From: Octopus sinensis
Taxonomy: Eukaryota
Length of the DNA: 64,000 nucleotides
Direction: 5' to 3'
Assembly: GCF_006345805.1 (NCBI RefSeq)
Contig: NC_042997.1
Location: 164,362,001 to 164,426,000, forward strand
Part shown: piece by piece, positions 18,939 to 52,000 of the stretch
How the letters are laid out: each line of letters opens with the position of its first letter
Numbering within the stretch: position 1 is the first letter of the stretch
The notes under the pieces: generated by a model
The model's database searches: none
What the model was told of the DNA's origin: nothing
The model's input: only the letters and a program-made list of their open reading frames with translations
Translations under genes and position numbers: made by a program

Positions 18939-19049
18939 ATGGGAGATATCAAGCAGTTTTTATATGCTTGGTGTGGTAAACAGAAGGTCACTCCTGTTTA
19001 CGAATTCAACACTGGTGGACCGAAACATAAACCTCGGTTCAAATGTGAA
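18939..19049 (+). CDS. DHX9: DHX9 coding exon 1 (start codon, dsRBD1 N-half)
   Basis: Acceptor tttcag ends 18933, ATG 18939; [37 protein letters not shown]; donor gtaagt. Confidence 0.95.
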
Positions 19050-28000: not shown

Positions 28001-31000
28001 ATTGGGTTTTGCTGTTCTACTTCCTACTTCAAGTTCTTTACCTTTTAGTCTGAATCCAGAACATTACTTTGTGTATAATTACTGTAATAAAATAGATAAT
28101 GTTCCTAGCTTGCTCATCCGATATCCTTTATTGTTAACTTGTGTTCCCTAGATAATTTTAAACAATTTGATACTTTCCCATAATTTCAATGTGAGTGTAA
28201 AAAATGTAAAAATTTGGGTTAAAAATTGAAATAATATTTTATTTCCTTTCATTTTAGATTCGGGTTGATAGTTTCGACTACATTGGTGTTGGTAATTCAA
28301 CAAACAAAAAAGATTCCCAAGCAAATGCTGCTAGGGATTTTGTCCAGTTCTTAGTTCGGCAGGGACAGGTCCAACAATCAGAAGTGCCTACTGTAAGTAC
28401 ATATCTGGTCTTCAGTCTTTTAGAAAACTTTAAAAAAAGTTGTTTTTTAATTAACAATATTTGCATCTTAGATATGTCAAGTTTACATTAATATTCTATT
28501 ATTGTTAGCATTCTTAGAGATGTAGTGTATCTTCACAATTCATTAGGTTGTTTACTATATATATAATGTCCATCTTCCATGCAAGCATGAATAGGACTGT
28601 TGACAGGAGCTGGCCAGGTAGATGACTACCTTAGGCTACTGTGTCTGTTTTGCAGAGTTTTTGTTGCTGGATGCCCTTCCTAACACCAACCACTCTACTG
28701 AGTGGACCGAGTGTTTTTATGTGGCACCAATGTGTTTATATATAATAATAAATTAATGTTGATTAACATTTAAGAATTTTCACTGCAAGATCTTCATGTC
28801 AACTTCAGAATAGCTTTTAAATAGTTCTGTTTCGCCTGGCACCAGTGCAGGTGGCACGTAAAAAGCACCCACTACACTCATGGAGTGGTTGGCGTTAGGA
28901 AGGGCATCCAGCTGTAGAAACATTGCCAGATGAGACCGGAGCCTGGTGCAGCCTTCTGGCTTCCCAGATCCCCGGTCGAACCGTCCAACCTATGCTAGCA
29001 TGGAGAACGGACGTTAAACGATGATGATGATGATAATATATGAAGAAGCTGTTGACAGAAATATAATATGCATTGCTATTTTGTATTTCACCTCTTCAAA
29101 ATTGCTATTGTATGATAAATTAATAACTATGTGCATTATTAATGATATAAACTAGAAGACATTTAAAAATAAAATTTTAGCTAAGACCATGAATCACAAA
29201 TAATATGTAATGGTAAAGTACAATTTTATCAATTCCCTTTTGTATTCTTTTATCTTTCAGTTAACTGTTGGCATGGGTGCTGGGACAGCAGAAACTGTGT
29301 CTGGAAATGACACACCTGCAGATGATATGACTGATTCTGGAATATCTTCTGGTGGCTGTAAGTTAATTCTTTCTATACATTTCGATTTTAGAAAAAAACA
29401 GTTTGTTAATGAAGAATTTACTTTAAACAAATATCTTCTTTCTTGATAGCTTTCCCTGGATTAGACGCTAACAGAGACATTCCTGCTTATCAAAGGGGCC
29501 CACCAATGAGTTATTTGGACCGACTTGCAGAAAAAAGGAAATTGGAAGAAGTAATTATTTTTTTATCATTTTTCTTGATTTTTGCTGTCAGTGTCTACAT
29601 TAATTTACCATATTTAGTTGAAGTATTGAGTGTGAAGTGGTGGTGGTGGACTTGTTTCATAATTGTTCTCTGTTAAGTTTAGGGCAAGTGGAAACATTTT
29701 TTTTAGTTAAGAAGTTTAAATTTGCGACTACATAGTGCCAGGTTCAATCCCTTATGCTGTATCTTGTACAAATGCCTTCTACCATAGCCTTGGGCTGATC
29801 AATCCTTGTGAGTGAAATTTGGTAGATGGAAACTGGAAATAAATCTGAAGGATAAATCATGCTAGTACCACTGTCTGACCCTTGGGCGTCTTTAGCAGGT
29901 TTGATTGTTTTAAGAATTCAGCACAGTCAGCATTGGTAGCCCTAAAAAAGCTTAGGGTTTTATCCTACCTTCTCTGACCAAACCTACAAAAAACAAAAAC
30001 AAAAAAAAAGATGCAAATGTTGTGTGAGCTTTGTTTCCTTTTGTATTTGAATAAAATGGAAGACAAAGATCATATTCATATCAATATAATTTGAAAGTAG
30101 CTTTTAATGTGGTTATTTATTATAACTAATAGAAAATATTTCCATGTACAAGAACTTCCAATAATGTTTGGCAAAGAAGAATGGATCATTGATAGATAAC
30201 TATTTCATTTTATAGTAGTCCTGTAGCAATGAAGCAAGAACTAAATGTTTTGATATCTATTACCATATTTGTTTAAATACACTTTTGCTTCAGTTAACTC
30301 TTAGCTCTTAGTAAAAATTAAATAATTTTGCCATTATTAAAATGGGTTTTTTGTAACTTAGATTTTAACAGAATGTTTTAATTTAGATCATTTTAACCTT
30401 TTTGATACTAACCCATCTGAGATTGCCCTCTGGTTCTACATGATGCAAACTCCATGTTTAAAGTGATCTAAATTAAAAACTTTCATCAAAATGGACTGTT
30501 AATTTATGTTCCAAATACCAGCATAATAATGATAGTTATTTTTCTGTTCTCCATTAGTTTCAAAATTGAAACAAAAGCAGTGTAACAGAAATATGGAAAT
30601 GAAAGGGATAGTTTGTATCATAAAACTATAGATGATTTTTGATGGGTTGGTATGAAAAGGCTTTAAAAGCCTTTTATAAAAATTAGAATTATGATGATGA
30701 TAATGTTATTTTAGAGATGTCAGAAACTAAATATTTAGAAGGTTATATACTGACCTGACGCTAGTTGCACAAGCTGGTACTGGTTGTTATTTAGAACTAG
30801 ATTAACCCTGATCAAAGCCTTTCTAAGTTTGAATATCACTTTTTTTCCCTCTGCTCAAACATATTAACTATAGAACAATGTTGTCTAATATGTCCTTCCT
30901 GTTTTTTAAGACAGTAAAGTGAGATCGAGCAAGTTGAGCAACCATGTAAAGAATCTTTTTTTTTTTTTATTCGCTCTTAATGATATTAAGCTTAGATCGT

Positions 31001-34000
31001 TGATATTTGGAATATCTTTTTCTAAAGATGGGCACATTGCAGTTAGCTGGAATCTGTGATGGAACTAATAGATCTTTTTGCATAGAATATAGCACAAGTG
31101 AACTCGATCTCAGTTTTCGGTGACATGACACTGCTAATAATAAACCTAATTTACTTATGTTAGATATAATTTGGCTATTAGATTTCTCATTACTATTCTG
31201 ATTTTATTTCTTCAGTCAGAAGATCTTGACTTGAATGCGAGTATTCACGGCAACTGGACACTGGAAAATGCTAAAAGCAGACTCCATCAATTTCTGCAGC
31301 AAAATAAAATACAAGCTGATTATAAATATTCTATGATAGGTCCAGATCATAATCGGTAAGTTAAAATGTTGGGTATTGTTTCCTTGTGTTGAATCTCTAT
31401 TGACTCCTGAAAATTTTATTACTTTTTCATGAAATTTTGGGTTTTAAAGTTCAAAATTCTTAAACAGATTTTATTTCATGTGTAAACTACAAACTTAGTA
31501 TAACTTTTTCAACATTGGAATATATTTACGTATATTATATAGTAGTTACAAGTCATTCACTAGTATGAGTAAACAGTAAATTTAATGCTTATTTATAATA
31601 GCAGTAATTTAGTTAATTATAGTAGTTAGTCTTATATTTTTTCCATCTGATGAAAATGTAAAACAAAACAGTTGTACTTTTTTCATGTGTTCTCAATTAT
31701 ATATATACTTTTAAAAATTATTAACTTTGTTTTAATTTTCTCTCTTATAATCACCATTAGCAAATGTTAAGAAATACTAAAATAAACATAGTTTACCATC
31801 GCTACAAAATTTGCTCTAATTATGCAACTCTAATTTCTGGTTTGACTTAGAATTACATTCGTATTATTTTATTTTTAAGTTCCCATATCTCGTTTAAAAT
31901 TATTGAGGAATACTATCTTTTGCCAATAATTACTTTCTTGTCAAGATTTAAGACCAACTTTGTCAAAAAATTCTTTATATCTGCTATCTGTTGGTTTGTA
32001 GTCTATACTAGATTAATATTTAGTGTTTATTTTGTAATTAGTTAATTGGATTATTACATGATTTTTAATAGAAATAATTGTAAGATATTCCTCTGATCAT
32101 TCTTTGGAATTTTTATTGGTGGGGATTTCTTGTAATGGAACTTTTTTTTATATTTAAATAAAGTATTTTCTGTTAAATGCTTTCAATAAAGTTTGTTTCA
32201 GGAAACAATATTTATCTACAATGCTTGGGTCTGCTAAAAGAAAATGCATTATCTGCATGAAATATTTGTGAATGTTTGTGTCATTTTGTGTGTTAAGATT
32301 ATTTAAATTAAAAAAAAGTTTATGCTCGGTAAGATAATGTCTTAAGGTACTGGTAATTCTCTAGTTAACTATTTGACTTGTAATTTTAATCAGATTATTT
32401 AGATATAGTTACTGAAAAACACTATATTTCATTTAGAAATTTTATTCTTGGCTTTTTTTTTTTAACTCAATAGCAACTTAATACTTCTGGTGCAATTGAC
32501 TTGCTGTTGATGTTTGTTTAATCTGTTTATTATATATTTTGTAACAAATTATATTTGTAGTTTTAAAAAGTAAGGCCTAAAACTTAGTTTCTAAAAATAG
32601 TGATTAAATTATAATAATTGAATGAATTTAAAAAGAAAAATCTTTTGATCAAGGATTCTTTATTTGAAAGATTGAAAGTTCAGTTTTTTAAAACAATTTT
32701 TCAAAGCTTAGACTAATTAAAGTTTTCTTTTTTAATTGCTTAAATTTGCAAAATATTTCACCATTAGTCAATTTTGCTTTACAGCTTAAGTAAACAGTTA
32801 TGAAAAACTGAAAACAAAACAATTTAATGTTCTACATGTTTGTATAGGGGGTTGGCATAGGTGTAAAGGAATAGAAAGAGAAAATTTTAAAGAACTGTTT
32901 TGTGACTACCAACAAGAAGTGGTTCCACTGAATCAATGTATCAACACTAGTTTCAAATGTGTATAGAGTCTTGCACATATAGATTGTCCTATCTACTTTT
33001 CAAATAATGTAAGCAGTTCTGATGAATTTGAATGTAATTATTTTCTCTTGTAAAGACATCCCTAAACTAATACATAACAGTCTTTATGTTTATCTTTTAC
33101 TCATATTCTATTAGTCTCCTTTATTTTGGTCATCACTAGCAACTACCTTCACACATTTGTGTTAATACTACATCTTGAATAAAATTAACTTGGTGTTTTT
33201 TTGTTATTTTCTAAGACAGGAGTGTTATAATTATAGAATATTAAATTATCACTACTGTAAAAGTAGTGTTAATTTTATGTTCTTTTATATTTGTAAATCA
33301 GTGTTAAATTCTCTTGTTCCAGTAGACTCCTTGTTAAACCTTAAATTGATATTACATCCTAGTAACTCAGATGTTTGTATTTTTTAAAGATTTTTTACAT
33401 TGTTGTTGTTGTTTGTTCAACTGGTTTAATTGGCTTGTTTCAATACATGCTTTTTTTAATACTATAAATGAATAGATTTAGATTATTTATTCTCTAGCTG
33501 TTTGGTAGGTTACAACATCTCTACCTTTGGTAAGAAGCATGTCTAATTGTTGTTAGTGATGCTGTTAGTTTTGCTGTTTACACCTTGGTGCTGCTGTGCT
33601 GTCTGACCTGATATTTGCTAGACAACGCCTGCTTGCGTGGCTTTTTTCTATTAAAATGTAATAGAACTGAAATGACTACAGCTGCAAATAGCTAAAATGT
33701 AATTCGTCAGATTTACTGTTTGTTATACTCCTCTTTATTCATGTTGATAATAAACCAATATGAAGCATTTAATTTATTAAATATATAGAATATACAAGTG
33801 AAAGTTTGTATATTGATAGGAATAGTAGGCTTTCTGACATTTTCTCAAAATTCTTCTGGCTTTCAGTGTTGCTATAATTTCTATAATTTAACGGGTTTAA
33901 TAATGTAAGAAAGAAAGGTATTTTATTCTATTTATTCTATATAATTCAGTATTAACTTTCATTATTTAATAAGATTACAATCATGATTTGCCAGAATGAT

Positions 34001-37000
34001 GGATCAGTGGACTAGCTTTCTTGGTAGGTGATACTTTAAAGCATTTGGGGTATAATAATGGGTAAAATGTTTTTATTTAATGATGTAATAAATGTTAATT
34101 GTAATTTAAGTTGGTAATTTACATATGATATGGAATAGTCAAGCCAGTTACTGGTATTGTAATGTAAAATCAAAATAGGAATATTTTTTCATAAAGATAC
34201 ATTCTCAATTAATGTTAATATGAAAGAAAACATATTGTGTTGATGTAAAATTAGGATAAGAATGTGTTGCAATTTCTGGAATTAATGTTGACTAAGGACT
34301 ATATTTCAGTACTTTTGTCACATATAATTGAAACTTTATTACTACTTTAGAAAAAAAATTATACCAAATATAACTATGAAAGCAAGAAAAAATTTTTGAA
34401 ATGTCAAAAAGGAATTCATTCTGTGTAATATGAGCTTCCATAGATAGATGACATAGTGTAATTATTTCACTCATTAAAGCTAAGTGTTGTGTTTTTGCAA
34501 ATCAAGGAAAGTAATTTATTTATTAGCAAAATTTAGGAGACCTCATGAGAATTAGATCATGGAAATATGTTCAGTTTTCATTCTTGATCTTCAGAAACTA
34601 ATTCTGTTTAGAAGATGTCCATGTTCAGTATGAGTGGGGAATAGATGGTAGCAAGGCAATATTTTGCATGTTGTGCATCTTGAATGTTTGAGTAAATGAA
34701 TTCAGTTATTTTTGTAGTAAAAGTCCAAGTAAAACCAGAAATCTAATTCAAGGCTTAAGTTAATAAAAAAAAAAGACTATCTTCATTCAAATGTTAAGTT
34801 ACATAACCTTTGCATGCTGGAAGTATTTTGTTGTAAAAGAATGAAAATTCAGGACTTTCAGCAAGTGAAGAATAAGAAGAAACATAAATATATATTTATA
34901 TACACACAGGTTGTTTTAATCTTAAAACAGCTATTGGTTCTATAAAGTAAAACTGCCAATGTTAGCATGTTCACATTTAATTTAATACCTTTCACCATAA
35001 TCTTATATGAGCTTTGCTTCATGGTGAAAACTTATTTTATTTAATTACTAAAAATTCCTGATTATTTTCAAATTGAAACACTTAGTGTATGTCAACAACA
35101 TAAAAGGTAATGAGAGGTAAAAAGAAGACAACTGAAAATGACTGCCTGTTCTAAATGAGAGTTTATTATACAAGTGAAAGTTGCTAAAATGGTTTACTAC
35201 TGCCTGGTTTGGTTGTGTGTCTGAGTAACTGTCTGAGAAAATAGCTAGTGTTTGATTTTAGTGGTAATTATGCTAAAGGTAAGTCATGGAATACTTGAAA
35301 TATATGGCTTAAAAAGTTTGCGTTAAGAATGGAATAAGTAGGATGTGGTTGTATGACCATTTTATAAAAGTATTAAAAATAATTGTTTCTTTTTTCTAGC
35401 TAGATCTTATTCCACAAAATGAGATTATTTGTTTTAATTTAAGGCAAACTGATTTTACATTGACTAGTTATTTTCATTTCAATTTTTAATTAAAAAAAAA
35501 AAATTAACATCAACTTCTTGCATTCAATTTGAAAACAAAAATGCTATATGGATATGTTTAACACCTATTTTTTTTTCTAATCAATTCTTTAAAAGCATAG
35601 TTTCTAATATATTTTCTTTCCCTCTCGATTCCCTCTTTCTGTGGTTCTATCAATGCAGTGAGTTTGTCTTTACAGTACTCTTAGGTTGCACAGCTACAAG
35701 TGCCTGGACTTGCAACAACAATATTTAATAATCTGTGGCACTGAAAGACTGATTTCCTTTTCAGTCGTTATGCCACTGAAACCGACGACAGTATCATTCT
35801 TATTAGGTTTGTCCCACAACATTTATCAATTTGGATTATTTAGTAATCATAGCCAAAGCTCATAAAAGTAATCTGCTGAAAATTTTATTCTGTTTTATTT
35901 TTATATGAAAATATTCTGTTTTCTATTTCTTATACTTTTCTATTTTCTATTTAGACATTTATTTTTTCTAAAATGTTATTTTTAAAAAAATGTTTATTAT
36001 ATGCTACTCTATATACCAAGAACAATATAGAAAATATGTAATTGTATATGTTTATAGACTTTAAGAAAACATGCATTCAAATCTAACTCATAATATTTGT
36101 TGCTCATAGGTGCTGTTTTATTTTTCACTATTTGTCCTAATTAAATGGTATATTTAAATATTTTCAATGTGTATTAGAAACTTAAAGGTTTTAGTAGTTT
36201 TAAAATGAGTTCATGCTATATTTAAACATAAAATTTGATCATCTTAAGGATTTTAACTCATGAAGTTTGAACAGTGCCATTAGGAAGTTTATGCTGGTTT
36301 TGCACATAAATATTGTGGTCCCACTTAATCATAGTTACAAGAATGATAATTATTTCTTTTGTCAAAATACAAGGCCATGTTTGTGCTCAATGTAATTCAT
36401 TCAATTTCTTGCCTGTATTTGTTTAACCCATAAAAATTCTAAATAGAATCAAATATTCAGGTACCAAATTACATTGGTATTGTTTCCTATCCTTCATGGG
36501 CATAAATCCTGAGATTTTTAAGAAAGGAGGAAATTAAATGTTTTAAAACATTCAAGAATTGAAATCGAGTCACAGGCTCCGCTGGCCAAAAATTTGACTA
36601 TACTCAATGATTCTGGCCAAATGATAATGACTATGATGACGTGAAAACAATGGTGCTGCTGTTTCAAAATTGCAGTGCTACCCTGTTAATAAAATTAAAG
36701 AATATATATAAAAAAGGAATTTCAAGAATTAATTATTTGAAATTCTAAATTCATTACGTTGATACGTAGTAGCTCCTCTTGATCATCTTCCTCTATATTA
36801 TTGTTTAAATGTTGGGTGTTTACTTAGTAATTGTATCTGCTTTCAATTTTTTTCTGTCATTAGTTGATTGAAAAGTTTGTGGCATATTCTGTATCATTTT
36901 TACTGGCCTTTCTGCATGAAAATAATTTCAGTTTGGTAAAGATAATCTACATTTTAGCGCAATGCCATCAGCTGAATATGTCCTGTTAATCACTTTTGAT

Positions 37001-40000
37001 AAAACACTAATATTAATCCTCATATTAGAAATTGACACATTAGATTCTATGCCCTGATTTTTTTTTGATTTTTTTACTTTGGTTAACATATCTACAGCAG
37101 ATTGTTAGAGCTTTGAGTAAAAGAAACAACCAATACATTGTCTGATACTTGTTGATAATGTTATAATTGTCTACATTTGTGTTTGTTATGTTAGTGGCAA
37201 GTATCTTTCAGATGTATTATTTTTTAAAAATAAGTATTGCATAATAAGTATAACTTATTTTTCTGTTGCTGCTAATGCCAGTTATTAACATTTCCATTTA
37301 GTAAGTAGAACATGATTATATCAGGTCTTATCATTGTAATGTTAAAACAATTGTTATATTACCTTGTAATAAATTAAGAAGACTAGGAAAGTTAAATTTC
37401 CTGTTGTTAGCTTCCTTAAAAATTGGAATACTTACAATAAAATGCCATTATATACACTTACAGATATTGGTCTTGTTGGTTGTTAAATAAAAAAATTTAA
37501 AGCTGCATCTTGGTTTCAACAGAACTTTTGCCAAGTTTGCAAAAGAAAAAAAAAACTGAAAATCAGTTGGGTAAAAATAACACTTGTCATTTAATTTTTT
37601 TTTTCATATCAGCTATTTAAAATGAGATAGCTATATTTAATGTAGATCCTTGTGAAGTTTTATGAATAAGCAGTAATAATAGAAATAAATAGCTTAATGT
37701 ATTGGTGTAATAATCATTGTTGGTTGGTAGATTTTGAAGTCTTATACTATTCTATGATGTATGAAGATGCTATCAATCTGTTATTATTGACTTGACAAAT
37801 AGATTACTCTCTTTACGAAGTGATTTCTGAAAAAGAAAAAAAACCCAAAAAACCATTATTGTATTACATGGAAGGGATTGACTTTGATAATTGGAACAGG
37901 TAATTGTCCTTTATCCAGTAATTTTTGCAAGTGTCTGTTGAAAATATTGTGTAGATTAATGCAGTACTCATACAAAGGATATGCAATTATACAAACCACA
38001 CACACATACACAAAATATGATATACAGAGCAACAGAGTTGCCTAGTTTTTCTCTATTACTGTGTGTTCCAGATGCAAAAGATCTTTTGAATGGTGAAGCA
38101 TTATGAAACTCAACCAACTTGGGAAAAATGAACATAAAATTTATGTCTGTGTGTTTGTATTTAGTTTACATATGAGCACAAAACCATGATGTTGTCTCAT
38201 AACATACTTTTCTGTAGCAACTAGACATTTTGATTAAAATTTCCTGTTTCTGCAGGTAAATAAATAATAAAAAGCTGTGGAACAATGAAAAATAGAAAAT
38301 TATCAACAAAATAAGGTGTTTAGAAGGGAAAAGAACTGAGTATGCATGGTATCCAATTTTATAAAATATTTTGTGCATACTTATTTTTATTAATCCTTTC
38401 CTTATCTTTATATTTTTAAACACCTTGTTTTGTTTGTAATTTTCTGTTTCTGCCTTGTTACTTTTATGTTATTATAGTTGATTATTAATGTGGATATGAC
38501 AACCAAAAAATGAAATTTTAATTTGGCCATTGAGTTATTGATTTCATTTGATTTGTATTTCAACTACAACTGTAAACAAAATAAATTGTTGATAACAAAT
38601 GAGTATGCATCTGAAATATTAAAGATAGTCCTATTATAGTTTGAGGTAATGATTCGAACAACACCACATTTACTTTTTTTATATATTTCATTTAAAATTA
38701 ATGTGATTACTTGAAATATTTGGTTATGGAACAAATGAAAGTAATAAGCATTCAGGTTACAAGAAATGGAGGATTTGGCAGGGCTTTTTCATTGTGCTTA
38801 ACTGAATTCCACATTTTATATTAATGTAGATCTTTCAAAATAGGATAATGCATGCAAATTCAGAGTTCTGGCAATGTAAATAAATTCAAATACTATTATA
38901 GGTATTAGCTAAAACAGGTATTAAATAGTGCTTGTTTTATTGGCTATGCATGACTAGGATGACAAGTGGTTTTACTACTTATCTTTAATGTTATCAATTT
39001 TTATAATTTTAATGTTTTCATAGCCATTTTTTTAGTTATTTATTGTGACCTTTGTTTGCTATTTGTTTAAAAGGATTTGACCTTATTTGGTATTTTCATC
39101 TCAACTAAAATAAGATTTATCTGTTGAAAATTGACAAAGAAATCTAAAAACATTAACCAAGTGAGTGGTATCACTCTCATGGTAATGGATGTTCATTTGT
39201 TAATAAGTCTGATACTGTCGTTGTTTGACCCTTGTCCTTTTACCATGCAACTTAACTTACCATCATGGCGTTTAACCCAGAAAATTTCATTGCAAGAAAC
39301 AGCTTTCTACATGAAACATTTGAAGTGTGCAGCTCTTATTCTATAACATTAAGCTGGCATTATGCATGCTGTGGTTTCCAGACATAATTTAATTTCCTTA
39401 ATGCTATTTTAAGTTTCAAAAATTTTCCTTTAATATGAAATGATTTGAGATATTATAAGAATGTCTTAAAATTTGTTCCAGTAATCACTTAATGATAAGA
39501 AATTCATAAAGTTATTTTGTATAAATTCTTTGTGTCTGGAATATGGTTTAATATCTGTTAAGTAAATCTATGAATGATGATTAAATATACTATATAGTAT
39601 ACCTTACCATTGTGTTTTCCAGACTAAAAGGAGATTGTTTTATGCTACATTATCTGTAATATCAACAGATCTGATATATTAGATCTACTTATATTAAATA
39701 TAAATCCTCTCTCTCTCTCAAAAAAAAAAAAAACTTTTTTAGTGATTTGTAAAAGGACAAAGGAATGCATATTGCAGCTTAAAAGAAAAAGTTCTGTAGA
39801 ATTTGAGGTGCATTCTTCTGAGATTTTTTTTATGTTGAGTTGATTTCTTGCCATAAAATTTAATTTTATCTTAGCCAATTTTCTTACCTATAGAAAATCT
39901 AAGATAAAAGAAAAAAAATTGTTCAATTATTTGTATGCACTAAATGCATACATAAATATTAAATATCTAAGATGGTAAAGTTGCAATTCTTCACTGATTG

Positions 40001-43000
40001 TTTGTCCTGTATTCCTGCTGTAGTGGGATGGATTTTTTATGTCCCCCACTAGAGCAGTAAAGGGCTTTAGAAGGGTTAATATATTTGTTTGTCTGTCATG
40101 CAGCAGGCACTCATAAAGTTGTTGCAGTCGTTGCCTCTCGTTCCTCCTCAACAGAATCTTACCATTGTGGCACTTGTATGCTGTGCAACCCAACTGCGTG
40201 TCTTCCTTGCTAGTTAAAGACAGCCCTGTATCTTCTCAGGTAAGTTATTTCCTGCTCTGCAGAAAACTGCAGCCCTTTTATTTCAGCATTATAGTGTACT
40301 ACAAAGGAAACCAGCTGGAAAAGAATAAAATAACGCAGTCATATTTATATATATTCTCTTCTGCAAAGATTCTTATTGTTTGAAAATGTTCTATCACAGC
40401 AGTACAGTCACTTAGACAATTCCACTACTTTTTAAAAAATTTTTTTTATTTTTACCTTCTTTGTATTAGCTGATATTAAATATTTTATTTTCAAATCACA
40501 AAGATGGATAGCTCTGAAAAGAAGCATTTATCACAATAATACCTTCTATTGAAATAACTGTTTTTAATTCATTTTTATCATCCTTTTTTTTTCTATTTTT
40601 TAAGTTTGAAGTTAGTTTCATCTAGTTAATTTTTAAAAGAATTAATATTGCTTTCATCTAAAAGTTAACAAAACTGAAATATTTATTGGGCTGTTACACC
40701 TGATTTGGTGAAGTTGAATGTTGGAAGTGAGTTTTAAGAGTGAAATTGTAATTTCTCCTCCCTTATGCTTTAGATGCAGTCTATTGATATGCTAAATTCT
40801 TACAATAATAATTGTATCTTTAGGAGATCAAATATAAAGATCTTTGTTTAAGTACTCTGGCAGTTTATGCAAAAGACTCTGCAGGTTTTTGGATAAACTA
40901 TTATTGCAGCATTATCATCAGTCCTACTAGAAATATTCTATTGCTATTTGGAGCAATAATTTTGATTTTTCATCTTTATATATATATATATATATCATAC
41001 AACTTCTCAAAATTTAAGTACAAGAAATTTCTTCTTAGACTCCTTAAGTTACAAATCATTATAAACATTTTCATTTAGGAACCAGCCTTGAAACATTTTG
41101 AATGGTTTCAATAAACAAATTTGCCACTAAAATACATAATTTTTATATTTGTTACAGTTTATCACAAACTTTATTCAGCAGTCTTTATTTCACTTCCTCC
41201 AAACAAACTACTGAAAATATTGGATGTTTAATCAGTAGGTCTCAAGCAGATGAAATGGGTGTTTTGCTTGTATGTATGTATTTATGTGAGTGAGTGAAGT
41301 GGATAACTGGTGGAATACATTGTTATGAGGTGTTTTTAAATAACTAACTTATTAATCTCAAATTGTACAAAGAAACATTAGAATTATTTCACTAAGTAAG
41401 AGTAAAATATTGTTTAAGGACACAGCAAATGGAATGGTCAATTTATTCTGGTGTGCACCTGTTAGCTTGATAAACTTAGATTTAAATATTGATGAAATAA
41501 TTCTTTGAAATAAGGTAAATATGATTTAGCTTGTTTTTCTGCAACAAAATGCAAAATAATTCGAAAATATCTTAATGATGCCTGGGATTTTTTAAAATAT
41601 GTAAATAGTTTTCATTCTGTTTCATTTTAAATGAAGTGATCAAAAATGGATTTAAAGTTCCTAGTTATTGAGTATTTAAGTAGTAATGTTTCCTGTATCA
41701 ATTCTTGTGTAATCACAAATGTTATGCTCTATTGCTTCCACAAATAATTTTTACTCAGAACCCTAAAGTAAGCCACAGTCTGATCATTCAACCAGCTAGA
41801 AATATCCCCTATATAACATTCTACCTAAGTAATGAAATGACATATTAGATAATGTACCCCAAGATAACTTGGATGTAGTTGGCATTAGGAATAATATAAA
41901 GCTATTAAGAGATTTTTTTCTAAATATTTGATAACTTGCTCGTCTAAAAAAATACCATTCAAAGTAATCTAAGAGCCTGGCTACTTGGCTCATTTTAGGA
42001 AAATGATGTTTGAAATCCTTTCTGTAAGAATTATTTTGTAGTAGAATATTATCTTCTTATTTTTTTCTGGCAATAGTCCAGATGAAAAGAGTTGATGTAA
42101 CATATTAGTGCTTATTAGGAGAAAAATCAATTCACTTGAAGCGCATTTTATATTTGATTTTTTATCTTTTTAGCTATTTTTGCATTAAGTGTTGTAAGAA
42201 TTATTTGATGGTTTGGTTGTAGCTGAATAGTAACTACTCAATTACTGGTTTCGATAATTGTTAAGTTTACGAGATTGTAATGAAATTTGATTAGTGCTTA
42301 TCTTTTTAAATAAATGCTTTCAGTTGTTATTTATTAATCATCTCTAATCAAACAGACTGCTTATGGTAGTGGTTAGTTTGATAGCAGCAATGGCTCAACA
42401 TATTAGATCTACTCTTTTTTTTTTTAACTTATTAAAGTTTAGTGATAGGGATTGCTATGTGAATGACTTCTTTGCCTTCAGAATGAAAGGAAGGTGTGGA
42501 AAATAAAGCTTTTAGAGTTCTCATTTCATAGCATTACGACATACGAATGCATAATAATGTAATGTCATTCCATTTGTTCTCTAATGCTAAACCAAGTACT
42601 TATTTATTGACTAGATAGATTCAAGACTATTTTATTTGACCTGGTACGTGTTGTTTTTAGTTTAAGCAAGTTTTAACGATATATAAATATTCATTCATTC
42701 GTACCAAGGGCGATAAATATTAGAAATACCAAGAGGAGTTTTCTCCCCATCTCGTTGTTATATTGGGTCATCCTATAAATAATGTGGCTTTTTCAATTGC
42801 ATGAAAAGCCGGAGGAGGACAGGATATATACCTGCATCAACTTGCTATAAATGCAAGTAGCTATTTTACCTTGTCCTTGTTTCTGCAAATTTTGAAGAAT
42901 GCTGTTCGATTTTAGCAGTTACTTTTTTAAAGCTCTAATGGAAGTGACAAAGCATATTCAGCCTATTTTGCTTTATGAGTTCAGTAAAGTTAATGCACCA

Positions 43001-46000
43001 GAAAGTGCAGGGAATATTAATGCAGTATATGGGGATTGGACATTAAGTGTAAGCCAGTGTCAATGGTGGTTCCAGAAGTTCTGAACCAGGAACTACAGCC
43101 TGGAAGATCTGTGGAGTTTGATGAGGACAGCCTGCAAATCTTGGAACAAAATCCCATCATAATTGTTGAGGAACTAGCAGAGTAGCTTGAATTTGGTCAT
43201 TCAACCACTGATCAACACTTGCGTGTCATTGGAAAAGTCAGCAAATTGGATCAGTGGGTTCCTTACAAACTTTCTGAGTCTAATCACATGGAGAGACTGA
43301 ATGTGTGCTCTTCTTTGCTGTCATGTCTCACAAATGAAGCTTTTTGGGACCAAATAGTGGACGGGTGACAGGTTCTCTATAAAAGTGTTGGGCACTGAAA
43401 ACTGGGAAAAGGAGGAACACCAACACCCCAGGCTAAAATTATTCACCCACATAAGGTGTTATCTGTTTGGTGGAATATGAAAGGTTTAGTCCACCTTGAA
43501 CTTTTAAATCCAAATCAAATGATAACAAAGGAGATATACTGCAAGCAGCTTAAGTAGGCGCTAGAAGTAAAGCGACCATCTTTGGTTCCAAGATGAAAAG
43601 TGAATGCTCGGTCACATAGAGCGAGGATGACATTCCATAGGTTGGAGCAATTTAAATGGGAAAGTATGCCCCACCTACCATATTCGCCAGACATTACTCA
43701 TCTGATTATCATGAATTCTGTAGATGAGGTCAGAACAGTACTGGAGGAGTATTTTTCGTCATGGACAAGTGAATTTTGGAAGAGCATTGTAAAAAATGAA
43801 GTAGATTATATTTTAGAGCAAAAAAGAATTTTGTTTATCTTAATTTTGAAAAGTAAAAGAAGTATAAGAAAACCGCGTTATTTATGGAGAAAAGGATTAT
43901 CGAAAATGTTGGTTAGCCTACGCATTTTACTGTTTTTAATATGTGCTTTGGGAAAAAGAAGACTATATATTAAGTGTGGTATGGATCTATACATCAGGAA
44001 CCTAGCACATTAAATTTACTAGAATTTTTTTTTTTTACTGGCCCCTAACAATAGATGGTGGGGTGTTGTCTTGTGTGTGTATGTACCTGGTATATGAAAG
44101 TTGTGGAGAGCATCTGCATATACTGCTGTGAATTGGTTTAGTAAATAGTTTCTGTGTTTGAATGTTTTGAAACACTTTAGATTTTAAGAGAAAATATAGA
44201 AAAGCTGGTCTTATTTAAATTCCACACTATCTTTGTGAGGATGTAGAACTTTTAGCACTTGGAAGTGTAATCAAGTTTATGGATTTGTATAGCTTTCAGT
44301 ACCAATGCTTTGGTGCAGTCCTCCGAGATCTTCCAGATTTTAATTACTGCTTTTTCATGTTTTTATTTGTCCAGTATTTCAGTTGATACATAGAAGCAAT
44401 TTAGGTCTGTTGTATTGCTTCCATTTCATCAGTGAAGTTGGTATTATAAAGTGCCTTTTGAGAGGAGTAATTTTATTTGAAAACTAAGAACAAGTATCTT
44501 TTGACTGGTTGTTGTTTTCTAAATATTCTCAAGATTCCATCCTGCTAGTAGTTTGCAAATTGTCATATTTCATTAATATAACTCTGTAATAGTAACATTA
44601 CTTGTTATCTGTATGTGTCACCTGGATTCTGATTAGGTATTGCATTACCTTGTACATCTACGTTGCAATGTGTTACAAGGCTCATAAGGAATGTGTTGTT
44701 TCCATCAAATCAGTGTCTTTCTGTAGGTTTTTGACACCATTGAGACTCTTATTTACTTTTGATATTTTAATGTTATTGTTAGTAAAGATGGTAGTTCTGA
44801 GTAACCAGGGTTATATTTCAGAGAGCTGTTGAAATCAGCTTTACAAATATTTGAAGTTTTAAGTTTAGGGATGGAGTTATCTTCTAGAATATCTCAAAAG
44901 CTTTCTGTTTAAGTTGCATCTTTCATTAGAAGAAAAAGAAAAAAGTATTTGGTTTTTGGTAGCTATAAACATTTCTAACACATTGAAATTATGGTGATTA
45001 CAAAGTACTGAATTAGACTTGATCTGCCTTGAAGTTCTTTTTTTGTTTTTAAGATTTAAATAAACTATTATTGAAGAAAGAATTCAAAAACGATATAATC
45101 AGTGATCTACTTGCTTTAAAGATAGGTCAGCCAAACCTTTTTATTTTTCCTTTAGCATCAATGTGGCCTTTGTTTTATTTTTTATGTAGAAAATTTTTAA
45201 TTCTATAAACCCTTTTGAAGACTTGTCAATGTAGCAGTGTTTTTGAATCCTTAAAATTTTCATAATCAAAACCGTGCTCATTCTAAAATAGCATTTTCAT
45301 GTGTGCATGTATATGCACATGTGTCTATGGGTGTAGTGTGTATGTATGTAAGTTGTTTGTGTGTGTACATGTATGTGTACTTGCATGTGTACAGGTGGCC
45401 CATAAATTGGCTTAATATATAATATTATAGTAATGCTATATATATATTACATATATATATATATAAAGCATAATTTTTCCTGCATTCTTGCTTTCATTGT
45501 TCTTGTTATATTAAATTTGGTTCTTGGATAGATCTTTTTCTTTTGTTATTAACATTCTTATCTTATTGTTCTTTTGTAGGAGCTTCATTGCCGAGATGAA
45601 AATCTATGTCAAATCTATTGGGAAGCGTAAGTATTTTAAAAGAATTAAAGATGTTTCTTTTATTAATGTTATATATTTTTCTGTTTTATAGACTGATTCA
45701 AAATGTAACAATGCTTTACAATTTTATTTCAAAATGTCCAAGCAGCTAAAATCTTTAATGCCCATTTGACGAAAAGAAAAACATTCTCATGTATAATTAT
45801 TTATAACTACTTTTTAACTTTCATTTGATTTTCTTTTTTTCTTTTCTCTCTCATGTTAGATGTATCATCACGAGAGCATGGTTCAAATAAACAAGTGGCT
45901 TCCAAATCATGTGCTTTGTCTTTGGTGCGCCAACTCTATCACATGAATGTTATTGAAGCTTACACCGGTTTGAAGAAAAAGAAAGATGCTGATAAGGTAT

Positions 46001-49000
46001 GTTTTTAAGGAATTTTATCACTCTAGTAAAGCCTTTCCTTGGGTGCATTTTGGAATAATTATGTGGAGAGTTGTAGTTGTACCACTGGTGTTTGAACAGT
46101 ACCTGTATACTATGTATCACATATTCTTTTGGTTCTTGCTTCATAGAACATCTATTGGGAAAATTTCAAATTTTTTAGGTGATTACTCATAATTGTCTCT
46201 TTCAATGTCGTTATTGCTTGCAAACCCAACACACTGTTGTGTATTGTGACATAGAGCCTACAAAATGCTTTAGGTCTTGATAAAATACCTTTATTCCATA
46301 TATCATGTTTTTAAAAAGTAATCGTTACACTTAAACTATTTGTAAATATTTTTACTATTGGGTGTAAACAACGCATTGTACTGTGGGGTGGTTTTAAAAA
46401 AGAAAGGAAGGATTTGAAATGCATGTGTAGATGTTTACTAATTCAAGTGGGAGCAGGTCAAGTGAAATTGTTTGTGGAAGAAATGGGAGTCTTATGGTAT
46501 TGTACAAGCACACAGTTGGAAAAATATATAATGGTGGGAATGACATGGAGAATTGAATGATGGACTACAGGCTTAAGATATCTGTAGCTATTTTGTCAAT
46601 GAATGCTGACCAGTTTCTCATATATATATACATATACACTACAACATAGAATTGACATTTAATACAGCAAATGACATTTTTAGAGATGCAGGTAAAGTGA
46701 TCTGTAACATGGAAAGTGGACTTGGTGGAGCTATGTAGGATGGTAATGTTGTGGAAAGGTGGTTTTTGAATAGAAGTGGAAGCAGCAAAAGATCCACCTT
46801 AAGTGTGGCAAAATCTAAAAGAACTATGCACTAGGAGATTGCCCAGTGTTGTTTTTGAAGGAAGGGTACTCAGAAAAAATAATGGTAGTAAGGTTGGAAT
46901 GGAAGAATTGAAGTTGTGTAACTGAATGAAAAGTGTAGAAGAAAGCACCAAGCTGGTGGTGAGGTGGAATTGAATCAAGAGGATAGAAATGCAGCCAATA
47001 ACTAAGAGTGTGTGGCAACAAGGTATACTGATAACTGGTTGGAAGTATTCATGTTGGTAGAAGTGGCATACATGGGATGATTAGGCAAAATTGAGATTGA
47101 AGTGAAATCAGTAGGTTCTGAAATGATGCAAGTGGAGAAATTGTTATGGTCATAAGAAACAGATCTCAAAGAGGTTGACAGAGGTGTTAGAGGGTAAATA
47201 AATTTTAAGTTGAGATGGTAGGAGATGCGTTTTTTTTTGTTTTTTTTTTGTGAGTAAAGGAAATGGCACCGATAACAACTATAGCTGTAGAATGAGATGG
47301 CTAACAGACAAGTTTGTATAGGTAAGGCTCATTGTAGTGTGCATGGCCACCACAGTAAAGTGATTCTAAAAGTGTCTGTAGGAAAAGCAGTTGAAGGTTT
47401 GCTGTTGGTTTTAAGAAAGCAAAAGGCAATGAGTTCTGGTCAAGAGATGCTGGCCCTTCTGAGTATGAAAATAGTCCACAGTGTTGTGACACAAACTGTG
47501 TGTTCATTGGAGTGGGTGTTTCGTAAAGCAACTGGTTTCTGGATGCAGTGTGTTTAGTGTTAAGCTTGTTGCTTATTGCAATACAAGAATTATTTGATTC
47601 TGGTCCAGCTCTAGAATTCATCCACAAACAGGTGGAACCCCAGCAAAACACTCAGTTTCAGAGGATAATTGGTCTGTGGATAATCACAGCCATATGTGAT
47701 GGTGCAATGGATTCAAAGATGGGTGAGAAAATGTCAAAGAAGTTAACTGAGATAGTGGATGTAAAGGGCAGTGGAGTGAAAACTAAAATGATGTGCTGGT
47801 GGGGTAGGAAATAGTATTTGTAAATGTCTCAGCCTAATGTAGAGAGCTGGTAGTTAGCAGAGTGGGTGATAGTGTGCATGAGCAAATGAGGTAAGTTGGT
47901 CTTATCCTTCTGCCTTTATAGAGGAGGCAGAAGGGTAAGATTGTGGTTAAACTACAACTATGGAAAATAATGTAGCTGAAATGTTTTGGTAATATATGGA
48001 TAAATAGATGCAAGGATGTATGGTGGTAACTAAGAAGAAAAGGATTAGAAATTAAGGTTGTGATGCAGATTGTAGAAAGAGAGAGAGAGAAAACTTTATG
48101 CTCAGCATAGAGAAGATACATCTCAGGAAGTTGGTGTAATAGAAGAAATCCAGTATCAATGTAATTCAAGATGGGTTTGCATCTGTACAGTTTTCATATA
48201 TATACATGTATCATCATCATTTGACATCCAGCTCATGCAAGCATATTAAAAATGAACTTAAAATTTGACTATTATAATCTACTAGTTCTGTGTGTATATT
48301 GTGTGGTTGAGAATTTAATGATAATAATACAGGTATTTGAACCAAGTGTGCTTTTACTTCATATCATTTACAGATACCACCATTTGAAGTTTCCATTTGT
48401 CCTGAATTGGAAACTAGTCTGGATGAAGCTTTGAATGCATGGAATATTGAGCCTATTCAAGTAGTAAGTTGTTTACTTATTATTAAATAATAAATTTACA
48501 GTATTTTAACTTGATGCCTTTTACATAACATTTTCTCATTAACCATTTAATTTCTATCTATATTTTAAAGCCTGCTGAAATTTCCCCGGAGCCATTCTCA
48601 CTAGTAACTCATACTCAACTGGATGAATTTGTTCCTGCACCTAAACGTCCTCAACCAGGTGTGGTTTCTTGGTGTCCACCACAACCCAACTGGAACCCTT
48701 GGACAAATTGTAACATCGACGAAGGTCCTTTGGCTCATGTGAGTAAAGCATTTTATTGTTGCAAGAGAGTGCCATGTGTCTCCAAAATAAAAGAATATAA
48801 ATAATGATGATATGAAAGGAGTGGCAGAAAGCTGAAAGTATGTGTGGAATTCTTGTATTGTGTCAAGAAGTTTGGGTTCTTGTTCTAGTGGAAGTAACCT
48901 CTTTACTGGCATATCTTTTTTTTTTTTAACTATTATATATACATAAAAGGAACTGCTTTGCCTGAGCAGGTTTTTCAACTAATGGTCTGATCTTTATGTA

Positions 49001-52000
49001 ATTATAAATCCAGAAAGATGCATTTGTAAAATTAGTTGTACAGAATTAAAATGGAACCTACAAATGTATAATATAGTGATGCAGTATTAACTGTCTCTTA
49101 GATGTTGTTTACTGTCAAGCTAACTCTGATCAGATGAATCCAGCTGTGATCATCCTGTCATTTTATGACTATCTAGGAATAAGGCTTGAAAGTTATTGGT
49201 TGGTTATATGTTTACTTATTACCATTAATATAAAAAAAAAAGTATGTTGAAACAATAGATCCTTCCAGAAATGCTTTTTTTTTTTCATCAAATTGGAGTC
49301 AATAAAAGTACCTGTCAATTTTTAGGGGCAGATTTAATTAACTCCCCCTGTCTATTCATATGACTTTGCATCGGTTAGAAGTGATTATTATTTATTTATT
49401 TTCTGTGATTATTGTTATTTAGGCCTCAATGGAACAAATCAGTCAGGATGTGTACCGGTCACTAGAAGAACAGAGAGCCAATGATAGAGATCTTCAGGCT
49501 GTAAGTCCTCATTGCTTAATTGCATATGTTACTATATTTTTATGTCTGAGACTATATATCTTTATTGCTAATAATTTTGGCAATAAACTTGTATGTTAAA
49601 TAATATTTATTTTGAAAATATTAAATGTCGATAGGTTTTAGTTCAATTATTTGAGCATTGATTCCCTTTTTTGTTAATGTTGCCATGAATCAATTTAAGC
49701 AGAATCAACACCAATGAACTTGTGTTAGTATAGCATTTTAACTTTACTATCATATTTTCCATACTCTTAACATTTTCTTGTGAGAGTCATACATGTGGAA
49801 AGAATTAGAAAATTATTATTTTTTAGCAGGTGTTTGTTAAATGAAGCATAGATAATCTATTCCAGTATGACTAAAATTAAATGTCAATACACCATTATAA
49901 TATTTTTTTTAAACATCTTTCATTGAATTTTTCCTGTCTTCAGATGCTCCATGATCGAAGCAAGTTACCTATCAATCAATCTAGAGATCATATTGTACAA
50001 GTTATTAAATCTTCCCCGGTTGTTCTCATAAGAGGAGAAACTGGATGCGGTAAAACAACACAGGTAATTGATTCTGTTCTTTTATTTGTGAAAGAAATTA
50101 AAAAATTACTTGGTGCAAATTGAGATTGCAAAATGTGCAAGTAAAAGTAAATATGCAGGTTTAAGTGCTCTTATTGCTCACATGGTCAAATCACAAGTCA
50201 AACTTTAAAATATAGGTACTGAAAGATGATGATAGTCCTTTTAGATATTGTGTCTTATAAGAAAAAAAAATGGTTGTGGCTGGAAGGCTTTGAATGGATG
50301 AGATTGAATGAATATTTGAAAATTTCATATGTAAATCCCAATTTTTATTGCCTTAACCCTCTCATGACTATATTTCTGACCAAAATACACCCTTCATGAG
50401 TTCCAATTAAATTCTAAAATAATCATGAATTTAGACTGGTTTCATTAAACAACTGTAACTTTTTTACTTATAAACATATTAATATGACATTTAGAACATA
50501 ATTGAAGAAAGGGTTCTTAATCAATTCTGTTGCATAATTTTTGTCTCAAAGTGACTCTAATTAGAGGTAAACTGAGCAAAATGTAAAAATATTTAAATTT
50601 TGTTTAAACATTACCATAGAAAATGAGTCATCGGTTAATATTCATTTGGGTATGCAATAAAATTTTGATATAGAATTGTGTACATCAATAGATTATCAGT
50701 TGAATTTAATGCACAGAAGAACAGGTGTACCATAAAGGTAGAATAAACTGAAATACTAGAATTTGTTTTTGAAAAATGAAATATACTCACACACATACAT
50801 GAATACACAGGAACATATATAACAAAGATTTACAATAGAAATTAAATCACACTCACCTTACAGGCAAATTAAAATAAAAAGTGAAACAAAGTAAATTTGA
50901 AAAGTATTATTTATACAATCTATTATACATATATACAATATTTCTATCATGGAAAGTTGTAAAACATCCCACTCTACATACTGCAACCTTGCAGAATACA
51001 CATTGGAAAGATGTTTCAATTGGCCATCCACTGGGAGTTTTTCTTTGTAGTAGTAGACATTCGTTACATTGCCTTTTGTCCCCTCCCCCATTCCCCCCCC
51101 TCTAATTTATGAAGATCAGCAGAGCTCAAAGGGATATCTCTCTGGCAGGCTTTGCTTTTCCTTCTTGGAGTTATTTTCTGGGAGGAATAACCTGCCCACA
51201 ACTGCGTTGCTACATCTGCTTGGAACTGCAGATGGTCGCACTGCTTGTGAGCCCCTCCTGATTTGGTATATAATATAAATGCATTTACAATGCTCATGTT
51301 TACTATATACCAAACCAGGTATCGCCACCATTTATACCCATTCTACCAACCGGATAATAACTCATCATATGGTTCAGCCGATCCACACCGCCCATGTACC
51401 TGTTATAATCAAGGTTCACAAATGGGGTGCCATTTTCATCTACACATGGTTGTGCACTGGTAGATATAAAATTTATCTGCCTCTTATCTCTGTATGCGGT
51501 CGCTAGCAGATTTCCTTTCTGCCATTGGATTATTTCACCTCTTTTTTTTAAATTTTGCTTTTACTATATCCAATGGCAGCCCTTTTCTACTAGCAATTAC
51601 TGTAGCACACATATGTCTAAATCCATCGCAAGTTTGTCCAAACTAAAAAAATCAATCAAAAAATAATGTACGGCCCTGGTTATGGTATGGAAGTGATGAA
51701 TTCCAGATCACATCGTACCCTAGGCCATGTTGACTAACATTATTGTCTCTTTTCCCTGTATAAAAACTAAATCCACAGCAGTACCCAGTATTTGCTTCGC
51801 AAATTTTCCAAACTTTGATCCCCCATTTCATGGGCTTTCTTGGCATTTACTGTCAGAAGCGTACCCTTCCTTTATATTTCACCATGCCCTCATCAACGGG
51901 TAAGTATCTCTCAGGGTTGTAAAATATTTTATATGCATTTTGAATGCAATCGATGAGGGGTTTTATTTTACATAAGGGGTCAAAGTTTGGTTCTCCGCGT

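Follow-up and report, generated by a model that had tools for sequence, protein, structure and literature searches.

The 64,000-nucleotide (nt) stretch of the Octopus sinensis genome analyzed here (NC_042997.1, positions 164,362,001 to 164,426,000; hereafter the window) contains the gene for DHX9 (RNA helicase A), one intron of which harbors a 136-nt cassette exon with an internal stop codon, that is, a poison exon. The gene, like all features described below, lies on the forward strand and extends over positions 18939..63277 of the window, from the ATG to the last matched segment. Its identity is indicated by a tblastn search with P0001, which aligns exon by exon up to approximately position 63277 and is a full-length relative with helicase, HA2 and OB domains in addition to two double-stranded RNA (dsRNA)-binding motifs (Pfam), and by the phylogenetic tree, in which DHX9 of the window clusters with cuttlefish DHX9 with support of 1.0. 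A coding exon upstream of the intron in question has a single match in the genome, in keeping with DHX9 being a single-copy gene.

The intron is 14,224 nt long (31356..45579) and occupies the position of human intron 6, as indicated by RNA joints that skip the poison exon and by the published human junction primers. It is preceded by a coding exon (31216..31355) that ends in phase 2 with GPDHN-R, encodes the first half of the second dsRNA-binding domain and is the counterpart of human exon 6; it is followed by a 47-nt coding exon (45580..45626) starting with SFIAEM, which is the counterpart of human exon 7 according to its sequence, the RNA joints and the primers. The skip form thus reads GPDHNR|SFIAEM and continues with the 47-nt exon and the next coding exon (45860..45996). 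Downstream of the poison exon, tblastn with P0001 yields 24 homology segments, in agreement with the claim of an earlier note on this locus, made from the sequence (the original prediction), that more than 20 introns follow.

The poison exon and its pairing partner

RNA contigs from four of 24 listed runs (X1, X5, X7 and X9) were aligned to positions 31100-46100. These runs were taken as RNA by guess, and the GT..AG joints that they contain support this assignment; X5 represents organism B and X9 organism C, that is, two organism labels from two studies. Among the 15 of 35 joints listed, the joint 31355→40104, with GT..AG ends and the acceptor AG at 40102-40103, has a depth of 115 in X5 and 100 in X9, the joint 40239→45580 has depths of 156 and 186, respectively, and the skip joint 31355→45580 has depths of 270 and 195. 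The exon is therefore both included and skipped in two of the four runs and, because these joints use the acceptor at 40104 and the donor at 40239, is 136 nt long as spliced (40104..40239). The acceptor in use (40076..40103) consists of a branch-like TTAAT at approximately 40076-40080, identified by eye, a pyrimidine-rich tract and the CAG ending at 40103, whereas the donor, GTAAGT at 40240..40245, is the best-scoring internal donor of the intron. Inclusion leads to a premature TAA (40114..40116) that follows R-R-H-S and yields a product of 198 amino acids. This stop is located 123 nt before the end of the exon, that is, more than 50 nt upstream of the downstream junction, as expected of alternative splicing coupled to nonsense-mediated mRNA decay (NMD).

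The original prediction had instead placed an 85-nt exon at 40155..40239. The signals on which it drew are present, namely the AACAG acceptor (40150..40154), the CAG|GTAAGT donor at 40239|40240 with the 85-nt spacing, and CTCAT at 40110-40114; a generic splice score ranks the 85-nt form first as well. The translation that it quoted for this form is correct, including the frameshift and the stop at 45888-45890 (counted by hand), which falls within the coding exon at 45860..45996. The RNA confirms that an exon is spliced in here and that its donor is at 40239, as predicted, but not the acceptor ending at 40154: the joint 31355-40155 is not among the 15 of 35 joints listed in X5 and X9, in itself a weak negative, and the 85-nt exon was rejected as the main form. 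Since the acceptor in use ends at 40103, the proposed branch motif CTCAT lies inside the exon, and the stop of the observed exon is internal, as in human exon 6A, rather than located in a downstream exon. The claim that inclusion would be unproductive is supported regardless of the acceptor: an in-frame stop is encountered from each of the three acceptors that end at 40023, 40103 and 40106, as was stated, and every acceptor tested gives a premature one. A minor 85-nt or 133-nt form may be produced in addition, because 20 of the 35 joints are not shown, the constitutive joint 45626→45860 is also absent from the table, and the donor-side depth exceeds the acceptor-side depth (156 versus 115 in X5 and 186 versus 100 in X9).

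The exon region is strongly conserved. In organism C, the segment 39969-40426 differs from the window by three substitutions and four gap letters, compared with about 4.6% change in other pieces; 21 substitutions would be expected from five other pieces (Poisson p ~1e-6). Thus, the 136-nt exon is under purifying selection between two species, in a comparison that involves one other species and carries some ascertainment, since the organism C run was found through this very stretch. The local fold of the exon region is not significant (z -1.7), and there are no Rfam matches at the gathering score in 31000-46000. A perfect small hairpin is located about 20 nt 3' of the donor, at 40258-40273; its likeness to a vertebrate exon motif is at chance level.

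The exon is complementary to a conserved element located 4.5 kilobases (kb) upstream (35664..35719). The core of this element, 35684-35704, forms 21 Watson-Crick pairs with one bulge with the exonic arm, 40169..40190, and is flanked by two shorter collinear helices (35664-35672 with 40215-40223 and 35710-35719 with 40118-40127). The helix was first noticed by eye, and a strict scoring scheme was chosen after two looser tests had failed; under this scheme, it ranks first among the compact long-range complements in the 14.2-kb intron, with a score of 46, compared with 26.7 ± 2.7 for shuffled exons, none of 1000 of which reach 46. The helix forms when the exon and its partner are cofolded. The partner is a single-copy element without a significant local fold (z -1.3), and the organism C pieces that cover it contain 3 changes in 242 nt and 8 changes in about 440 nt (p ~0.005 for each). 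Nested within this arrangement is another long-range helix, between 35783..35805 and 39201..39223, the 3' arm of which lies in a piece (39081-39380) with 2 changes in 300 nt in organism C. Part of the upstream element, 35699-35706, can alternatively pair with the first eight bases of the exon (40104-40111), in competition with the main helix; this pairing is a possible switch register.

Several other features lie in this intron or elsewhere in the gene. The segment 42800-43900, 3' of the poison exon, is a decayed high-copy DNA transposon with many paralogous contigs; it contains a match to the Pfam family Transposase_1 (43399-43554, E 2e-12) and, from its motifs, is presumably a mariner element. 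An earlier DHX9 intron contains a strong inverted repeat at 28393-29260 (score 93). Two predicted duplexes upstream of the exon are potential targets of RNA editing, which is extensive in cephalopods: a local hairpin at 38265..38487 (z -6.4) and a duplex formed by 39282-39375 and 39757-39861 (within 39282..39861; z -4.4), each with five A>G differences in an RNA contig, in the latter case distributed over both arms. In the X1 intron contig, A>G accounts for 12 of the 26 listed differences and T>C for 4, and 10 of the 12 A>G differences fall inside these two duplexes; the positions involved are 38296-38322, 39298-39309, 39801 and 39838, with three sites shared by X5 and one by X9. When each run is taken as a whole, A>G does not exceed T>C in three of the four. 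These clusters likely reflect adenosine-to-inosine editing, at candidate sites called from RNA contigs.

Human exon 6A and the same intron in other animals

In the human E6/E6A junction primer, exon 6A sequence follows the codons for G-P-D-H-N and two bases of the R codon, and the reverse E6/E7 junction primer reads N-R|S-F-I-A-E-M (PMC4741636). Because both match the junction in the window, human exon 6A lies in exactly the same phase-2 intron, as the original prediction had proposed. Exon 6A contains an internal stop, its transcripts are stabilized by UPF1 knockdown, and its inclusion responds to slow polymerase, ultraviolet light (UV) and etoposide (PMC4741636) as well as to SRSF3, hnRNPM and other proteins (PMC7072589). 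In another study, the listed human NMD exon (hg38 chr1:182855577-182855713) measures 136 or 137 nt and sits within a span of 2.35 kb (182854179-182856531); non-productive splicing goes up from 3% to 24% with cycloheximide if the values are read in the sequence in which the PDF text gives them (PMC7347940). The human (NR_033302; PMC4741636, PMC7072589, PMC7347940) and octopus exons therefore share the gene, the phase-2 intron, the cassette organization and the internal stop. By contrast, the octopus intron is 14.2 kb long and the human one about 2.35 kb, two primers and one inferred motif of the human exon detect no sequence similarity in octopus, and the near-identical length of the exons (136 or 137 nt and 136 nt) is probably a coincidence, given that the exons predicted in other animals are 65-93 nt long.

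The exon can also be traced in protein sequences. Among 342 proteins from three protein searches that were sorted by the sequence following the junction, six continue with WRRMRL, matching the human exon 6A primers (one is named as field mouse and one clusters with a bird), and four fish-type proteins, one of which is named as stickleback, contain the internal stretch of these products in either of two frames (SLAEKHT-like or VWQKNIQ-like). Because the fish-type proteins share this stretch with the exon 6A products, exon 6A is conserved from mammals to fish. The amniote-type proteins contain two versions of the exon 6A tail (P0151, P0208 and P0222 versus P0196, P0200 and P0214), and the size difference in reverse transcription PCR is 196 bp versus the listed 136/137 nt (PMC7347940); together, these discrepancies suggest alternative boundaries in vertebrates too. 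In three further proteins, P0002 (oyster-like), P0158 and P0229, the normal frame is lost immediately after the junction, where the residue cannot come from read-through into the intron, and P0002 and P0158 end in a foreign tail; these products could possibly reflect further extra exons, one in an oyster-like animal and the others in two further animals.

A scan of metagenome contigs yielded 80 other animal DHX9 loci, in which exons were predicted from DNA and for which sampling is sparse and tree placement weak. An intron at the same place is present in 62 of these loci and absent from 12, in which the coding sequence continues across the junction; the search pattern missed the remaining 6, one of which, L043, was added later. 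The intron-less loci include L008, L009, L011, L012, L020 and seven more, several of which match the protein in one unbroken segment.

One case is a clade of 33 loci inside Lophotrochozoa (support 1.0, with five members sampled) whose introns share two blocks that are reverse complements of each other. Arm A is present in all 33 loci and both arms in 21; the 12 loci without arm B are mostly short contigs, although L053, at 2,955 nt, also lacks it. Across 16 distinct sequences, 450 of 479 cells are paired, and five pairs are changed on both sides, in five different loci; none of 5000 permutations reach the observed pairing, by a statistic that ignores relatedness. Arm B begins at a CAG acceptor that is itself paired, and in 19 of the 21 loci with both arms, a CAG|GTGCGT donor follows 65-93 nt downstream. 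All 19 resulting exons carry a stop or shift the frame, and the exon length and frame vary freely, with no peptide kept. Thus, this clade possesses the exon-plus-helix arrangement with covarying pairing.

Similar layouts with no common sequence are found in L061 (grouping with the annelid Owenia, 0.88), in L016/L017 (weakly with molluscs), in L072, L055 and L043 (insects, 0.91), in L067/68 (chordate-like, 0.81), and in L049 and L062. For the clade of L048/L049/L062, the best named match is 71%, and neither this clade nor L070/76/77/78 has a clear position in the tree. In the latter group, which has short introns (242-253 nt), an extra acceptor is located 28 nt upstream of the normal one, and its pyrimidine tract lies within the helix, according to a splice-site analysis of L070, L076 and L077. 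In the lophotrochozoan clade, L016 and L017, the helix covers the acceptor AG. These layouts were compared with controls in a donor-anchored test, in which the best internal donor of each intron was selected, blind to the helix within the intron, and the 120 nt above it were scored against the upstream intron. Of the 33 stretches tried, four had no donor; a score of at least 42 was reached by 13 of the other 29, compared with 8 of 1040 overlapping control windows. L002, L003 and L048 fail this test. Among the 16 loci with controls, the intron helix beats every equal-length window in 11. In the cnidarian-like loci L024, L027, L029, L031 and L036, a short self-complementary motif recurs in the intron without a long helix.

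Possible function and alternative explanations

Taken together, these observations make it probable that DHX9 possesses a conserved poison cassette exon in the equivalent of human intron 6, the inclusion of which is gated by a long-range RNA helix. The included form would be destroyed by NMD, like the human exon 6A transcripts, as suggested by the junction rule and the human data. The helix would hold inclusion down, considering that the acceptor or its pyrimidine tract is hidden in it in several lineages and, in octopus, the body of the exon. The arrangement may descend from an early bilaterian ancestor, with its sequence turned over since. DHX9 is a helicase that binds and unwinds dsRNA, and, by analogy, might open the helix in its own pre-mRNA, so that more enzyme would result in more poison exon and less mRNA; this self-sensing is the most speculative part of the scheme, conceivable but tentative. 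Slightly more doubtful still is its broadest version, that DHX9 has possessed a built-in gauge of its activity from the bilaterian ancestor onward, if not longer, in which a helix between intron 6 and a poison exon or poison 3' site, unwound by the enzyme itself, was kept as a structure while its sequence was rewritten in each phylum, with human exon 6A being the vertebrate copy.

A number of results weigh against this interpretation. In octopus, the helix covers the body of the exon rather than the acceptor in use, and the unpaired probability of the used AG is 0.41 with the partner and 0.26 without it. The duplex energy did not single out the helix partner, an alignment with lenient gaps was matched by 6 of 300 shuffles before the strict scoring was chosen, and other introns of the gene also hold strong local inverted repeats (scores 41-93). 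Taken literally, the depths of the junction contigs translate into a steady-state inclusion of roughly 30-50%, which is high for an NMD target, although contig depth is a poor measure of expression. Runs X1 and X7 show no joints; some coding exons are also uncovered there, which a filter can cause. With respect to conservation, a blastn comparison of the window intron with the 62 introns of the other loci gave no match, 12 of the 74 located loci lack the intron, and the cnidarian-like loci show no helix above shuffles. In the donor-anchored test, the 33 stretches were hand-picked from 64 after the helix scores had been seen, and 6 of the 13 hits come from one clade. Finally, the sequence comparison with exon 6A, for which two primers and one inferred motif stood in for the whole human exon, found no similarity of the window to the vertebrate exon, with both primers at background. 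The best match within the intron, a look-alike at 40256-40272, was rejected as a homologue because it is equalled or beaten by 9 of 104 tiles. Since sequence homology was sought and not found, the octopus exon is not classified as a proven exon 6A orthologue; it works like exon 6A and sits where exon 6A sits.

The last group of results bears on whether unproductive splicing at this position is ancestral or convergent, an alternative already raised in the original prediction. Under convergence, which we regard as rather improbable, unproductive exons and helices would have arisen separately in this intron, an early one within the second dsRNA-binding domain and hence a convenient place to kill the message. 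The absence of a common sequence fits this scenario, as do the variable position of the helix and the different exon types, from 65-93 nt in one clade through 136 nt in octopus to a 28-nt 3' extension in another group; the poison exons of BRD2 and BRD3, with their RNA structures, have independent origins (PMC10789245), and events in genes for SR (serine/arginine-rich) proteins turn over (PMC4379411). However, the same intron and the same polarity, with the 5' arm upstream and the 3' arm in or beside the exon, recur in at least six separate groups, and neighboring windows mostly lack such helices. With similar exons at this position in a number of further animal lineages, the data appear to lean toward an ancestral origin, with no sequence homology to prove it. 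Splicing noise, that is, a cryptic exon in a long intron combined with chance complementarity, is largely refuted: although the 14-kb intron yields 56 exon-like candidates by the generic splice score and the helix statistic was tuned after the fact, under two organism labels the junction depths are of the same order as that of the skip form, the region shows strong conservation, and the pairing covaries in another clade.

Other alternatives concern what the helix and the included transcript do. The helix could promote inclusion, for instance, by bridging the 8.7-kb upstream intron, or act through other factors as a platform for ADAR, SR or hnRNP (heterogeneous nuclear ribonucleoprotein) proteins, with the exon following transcription speed or stress rather than DHX9. 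The response of human exon 6A to slow polymerase, UV, etoposide and SRSF3/hnRNPM, the apparently high inclusion, the A>G differences in nearby duplexes and the fact that the octopus helix spares the used acceptor all agree with such a role, whereas the covered acceptor AG in the lophotrochozoan clade, L016 and L017, or pyrimidine tract in L070/76/77, fits repression; this possibility, the least unlikely of the alternatives, is compatible with a helix-gated poison exon and can coexist with it. It also could be the case, with a still lower likelihood than convergence, that, instead of an NMD substrate, mainly a detained and partly spliced nuclear RNA with a decoy exon is produced, or a stable 198-amino acid protein with one intact dsRNA-binding domain. 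In X1 and X7, an unspliced contig spans the exon instead of joints; the 8.4-kb unspliced contig of X1 has a depth of about 23, whereas part of the next intron reaches 2.6 and a contig of exons 515. The X1 cover at a depth of about 23 is continuous over 31714-43040, up to the transposon, and there is none at 44126-45127; it could represent a detained or prematurely ended transcript, or a filter effect. The high apparent inclusion in X5 and X9 keeps this explanation alive, but fully spliced joints are present on both sides of the exon, the related clade varies the exon length and frame and keeps no peptide, and the human form is sensitive to UPF1.

The individual elements of a helix-gated poison exon in DHX9 have precedents. 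Both human exon 6A and structure-gated poison exons, in BRD2/BRD3 and in the plant DEAD motif, are known already. BRD2 exon 3b and BRD3 exon 5b (PMC10789245) share with the octopus exon the long-range pairing in pre-mRNA that sets poison-exon inclusion; in BRD2, however, both arms lie in the flanking introns, whereas in octopus DHX9 the exon itself serves as one arm and the gene encodes an enzyme that unwinds RNA. In the plant DEAD motif of DRH1/RH14 and RH46 (PMC12218528, bioRxiv 10.64898/2026.01.23.701338), the gene likewise encodes an RNA helicase and an unproductive splice site is covered by a helix of approximately 20 bp, for which helicase-dependent opening and negative feedback are reported. 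There, the helicase is of the DEAD-box type, the hairpin local and the event an alternative 3' site, as opposed to a DExH enzyme, a kilobase-range helix and a cassette exon in DHX9, for which feedback is proposed by analogy. A conserved, covarying helix, which characterizes the plant motif, is seen in the 16 distinct sequences of the lophotrochozoan clade; in octopus itself, the evidence consists of complementarity and conservation, with the helix on the exon body. Unproductive events retained across very distant lineages in RNA-processing genes are represented by SRSF5 and SMNDC1 (PMC4379411, PMC11357089), but these are splicing factors, and in DHX9 the conserved trait seems to be structural, with no sequence conservation between phyla. 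The accessible parts of the accounts of human exon 6A describe control by polymerase speed and by SR and hnRNP proteins in tumor cells, without reference to an RNA helix, to self-regulation or to a counterpart in invertebrates. DHX9 is not mentioned in the review PMC11062102, and in the accessible part of a DHX9 inhibitor paper (PMC12067447) nothing on feedback was found. A short isoform of Drosophila maleless was dropped from consideration after a single literature search found nothing on it. In the literature searched, which covers few subscription papers, there was no invertebrate DHX9 poison exon, no helix on exon 6A and no self-regulation of DHX9 by splicing; the pairing of the octopus exon with an intron element 4.5 kb upstream is new.

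Even without feedback, the octopus exon is a spliced, conserved invertebrate counterpart of exon 6A, of a kind that did not turn up in the literature. DHX9 clears dsRNA and R-loops and is a drug target. If a helix that DHX9 itself unwinds gates the poison exon, inhibitors would lower exon 6A inclusion, raise DHX9 mRNA and trigger compensatory up-regulation, inclusion of exon 6A would be a readout of DHX9 activity, and an antisense oligonucleotide directed at one arm of the helix would tune DHX9 up or down. Human intron 6 would then be expected to contain the reverse complement of the exon 6A stretch shared by mammals and fish (the SLAEKHTG / VWQKNIQ frames), and exon 6A, which up to now has been described as a stress response in Ewing sarcoma cells, would represent the gauge in vertebrates. 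More generally, unproductive splicing would here have been preserved between phyla by structure alone, a situation that screens for sequence conservation miss, and, in cephalopods, the dosage of a dsRNA helicase would be tied to dsRNA in its own intron.

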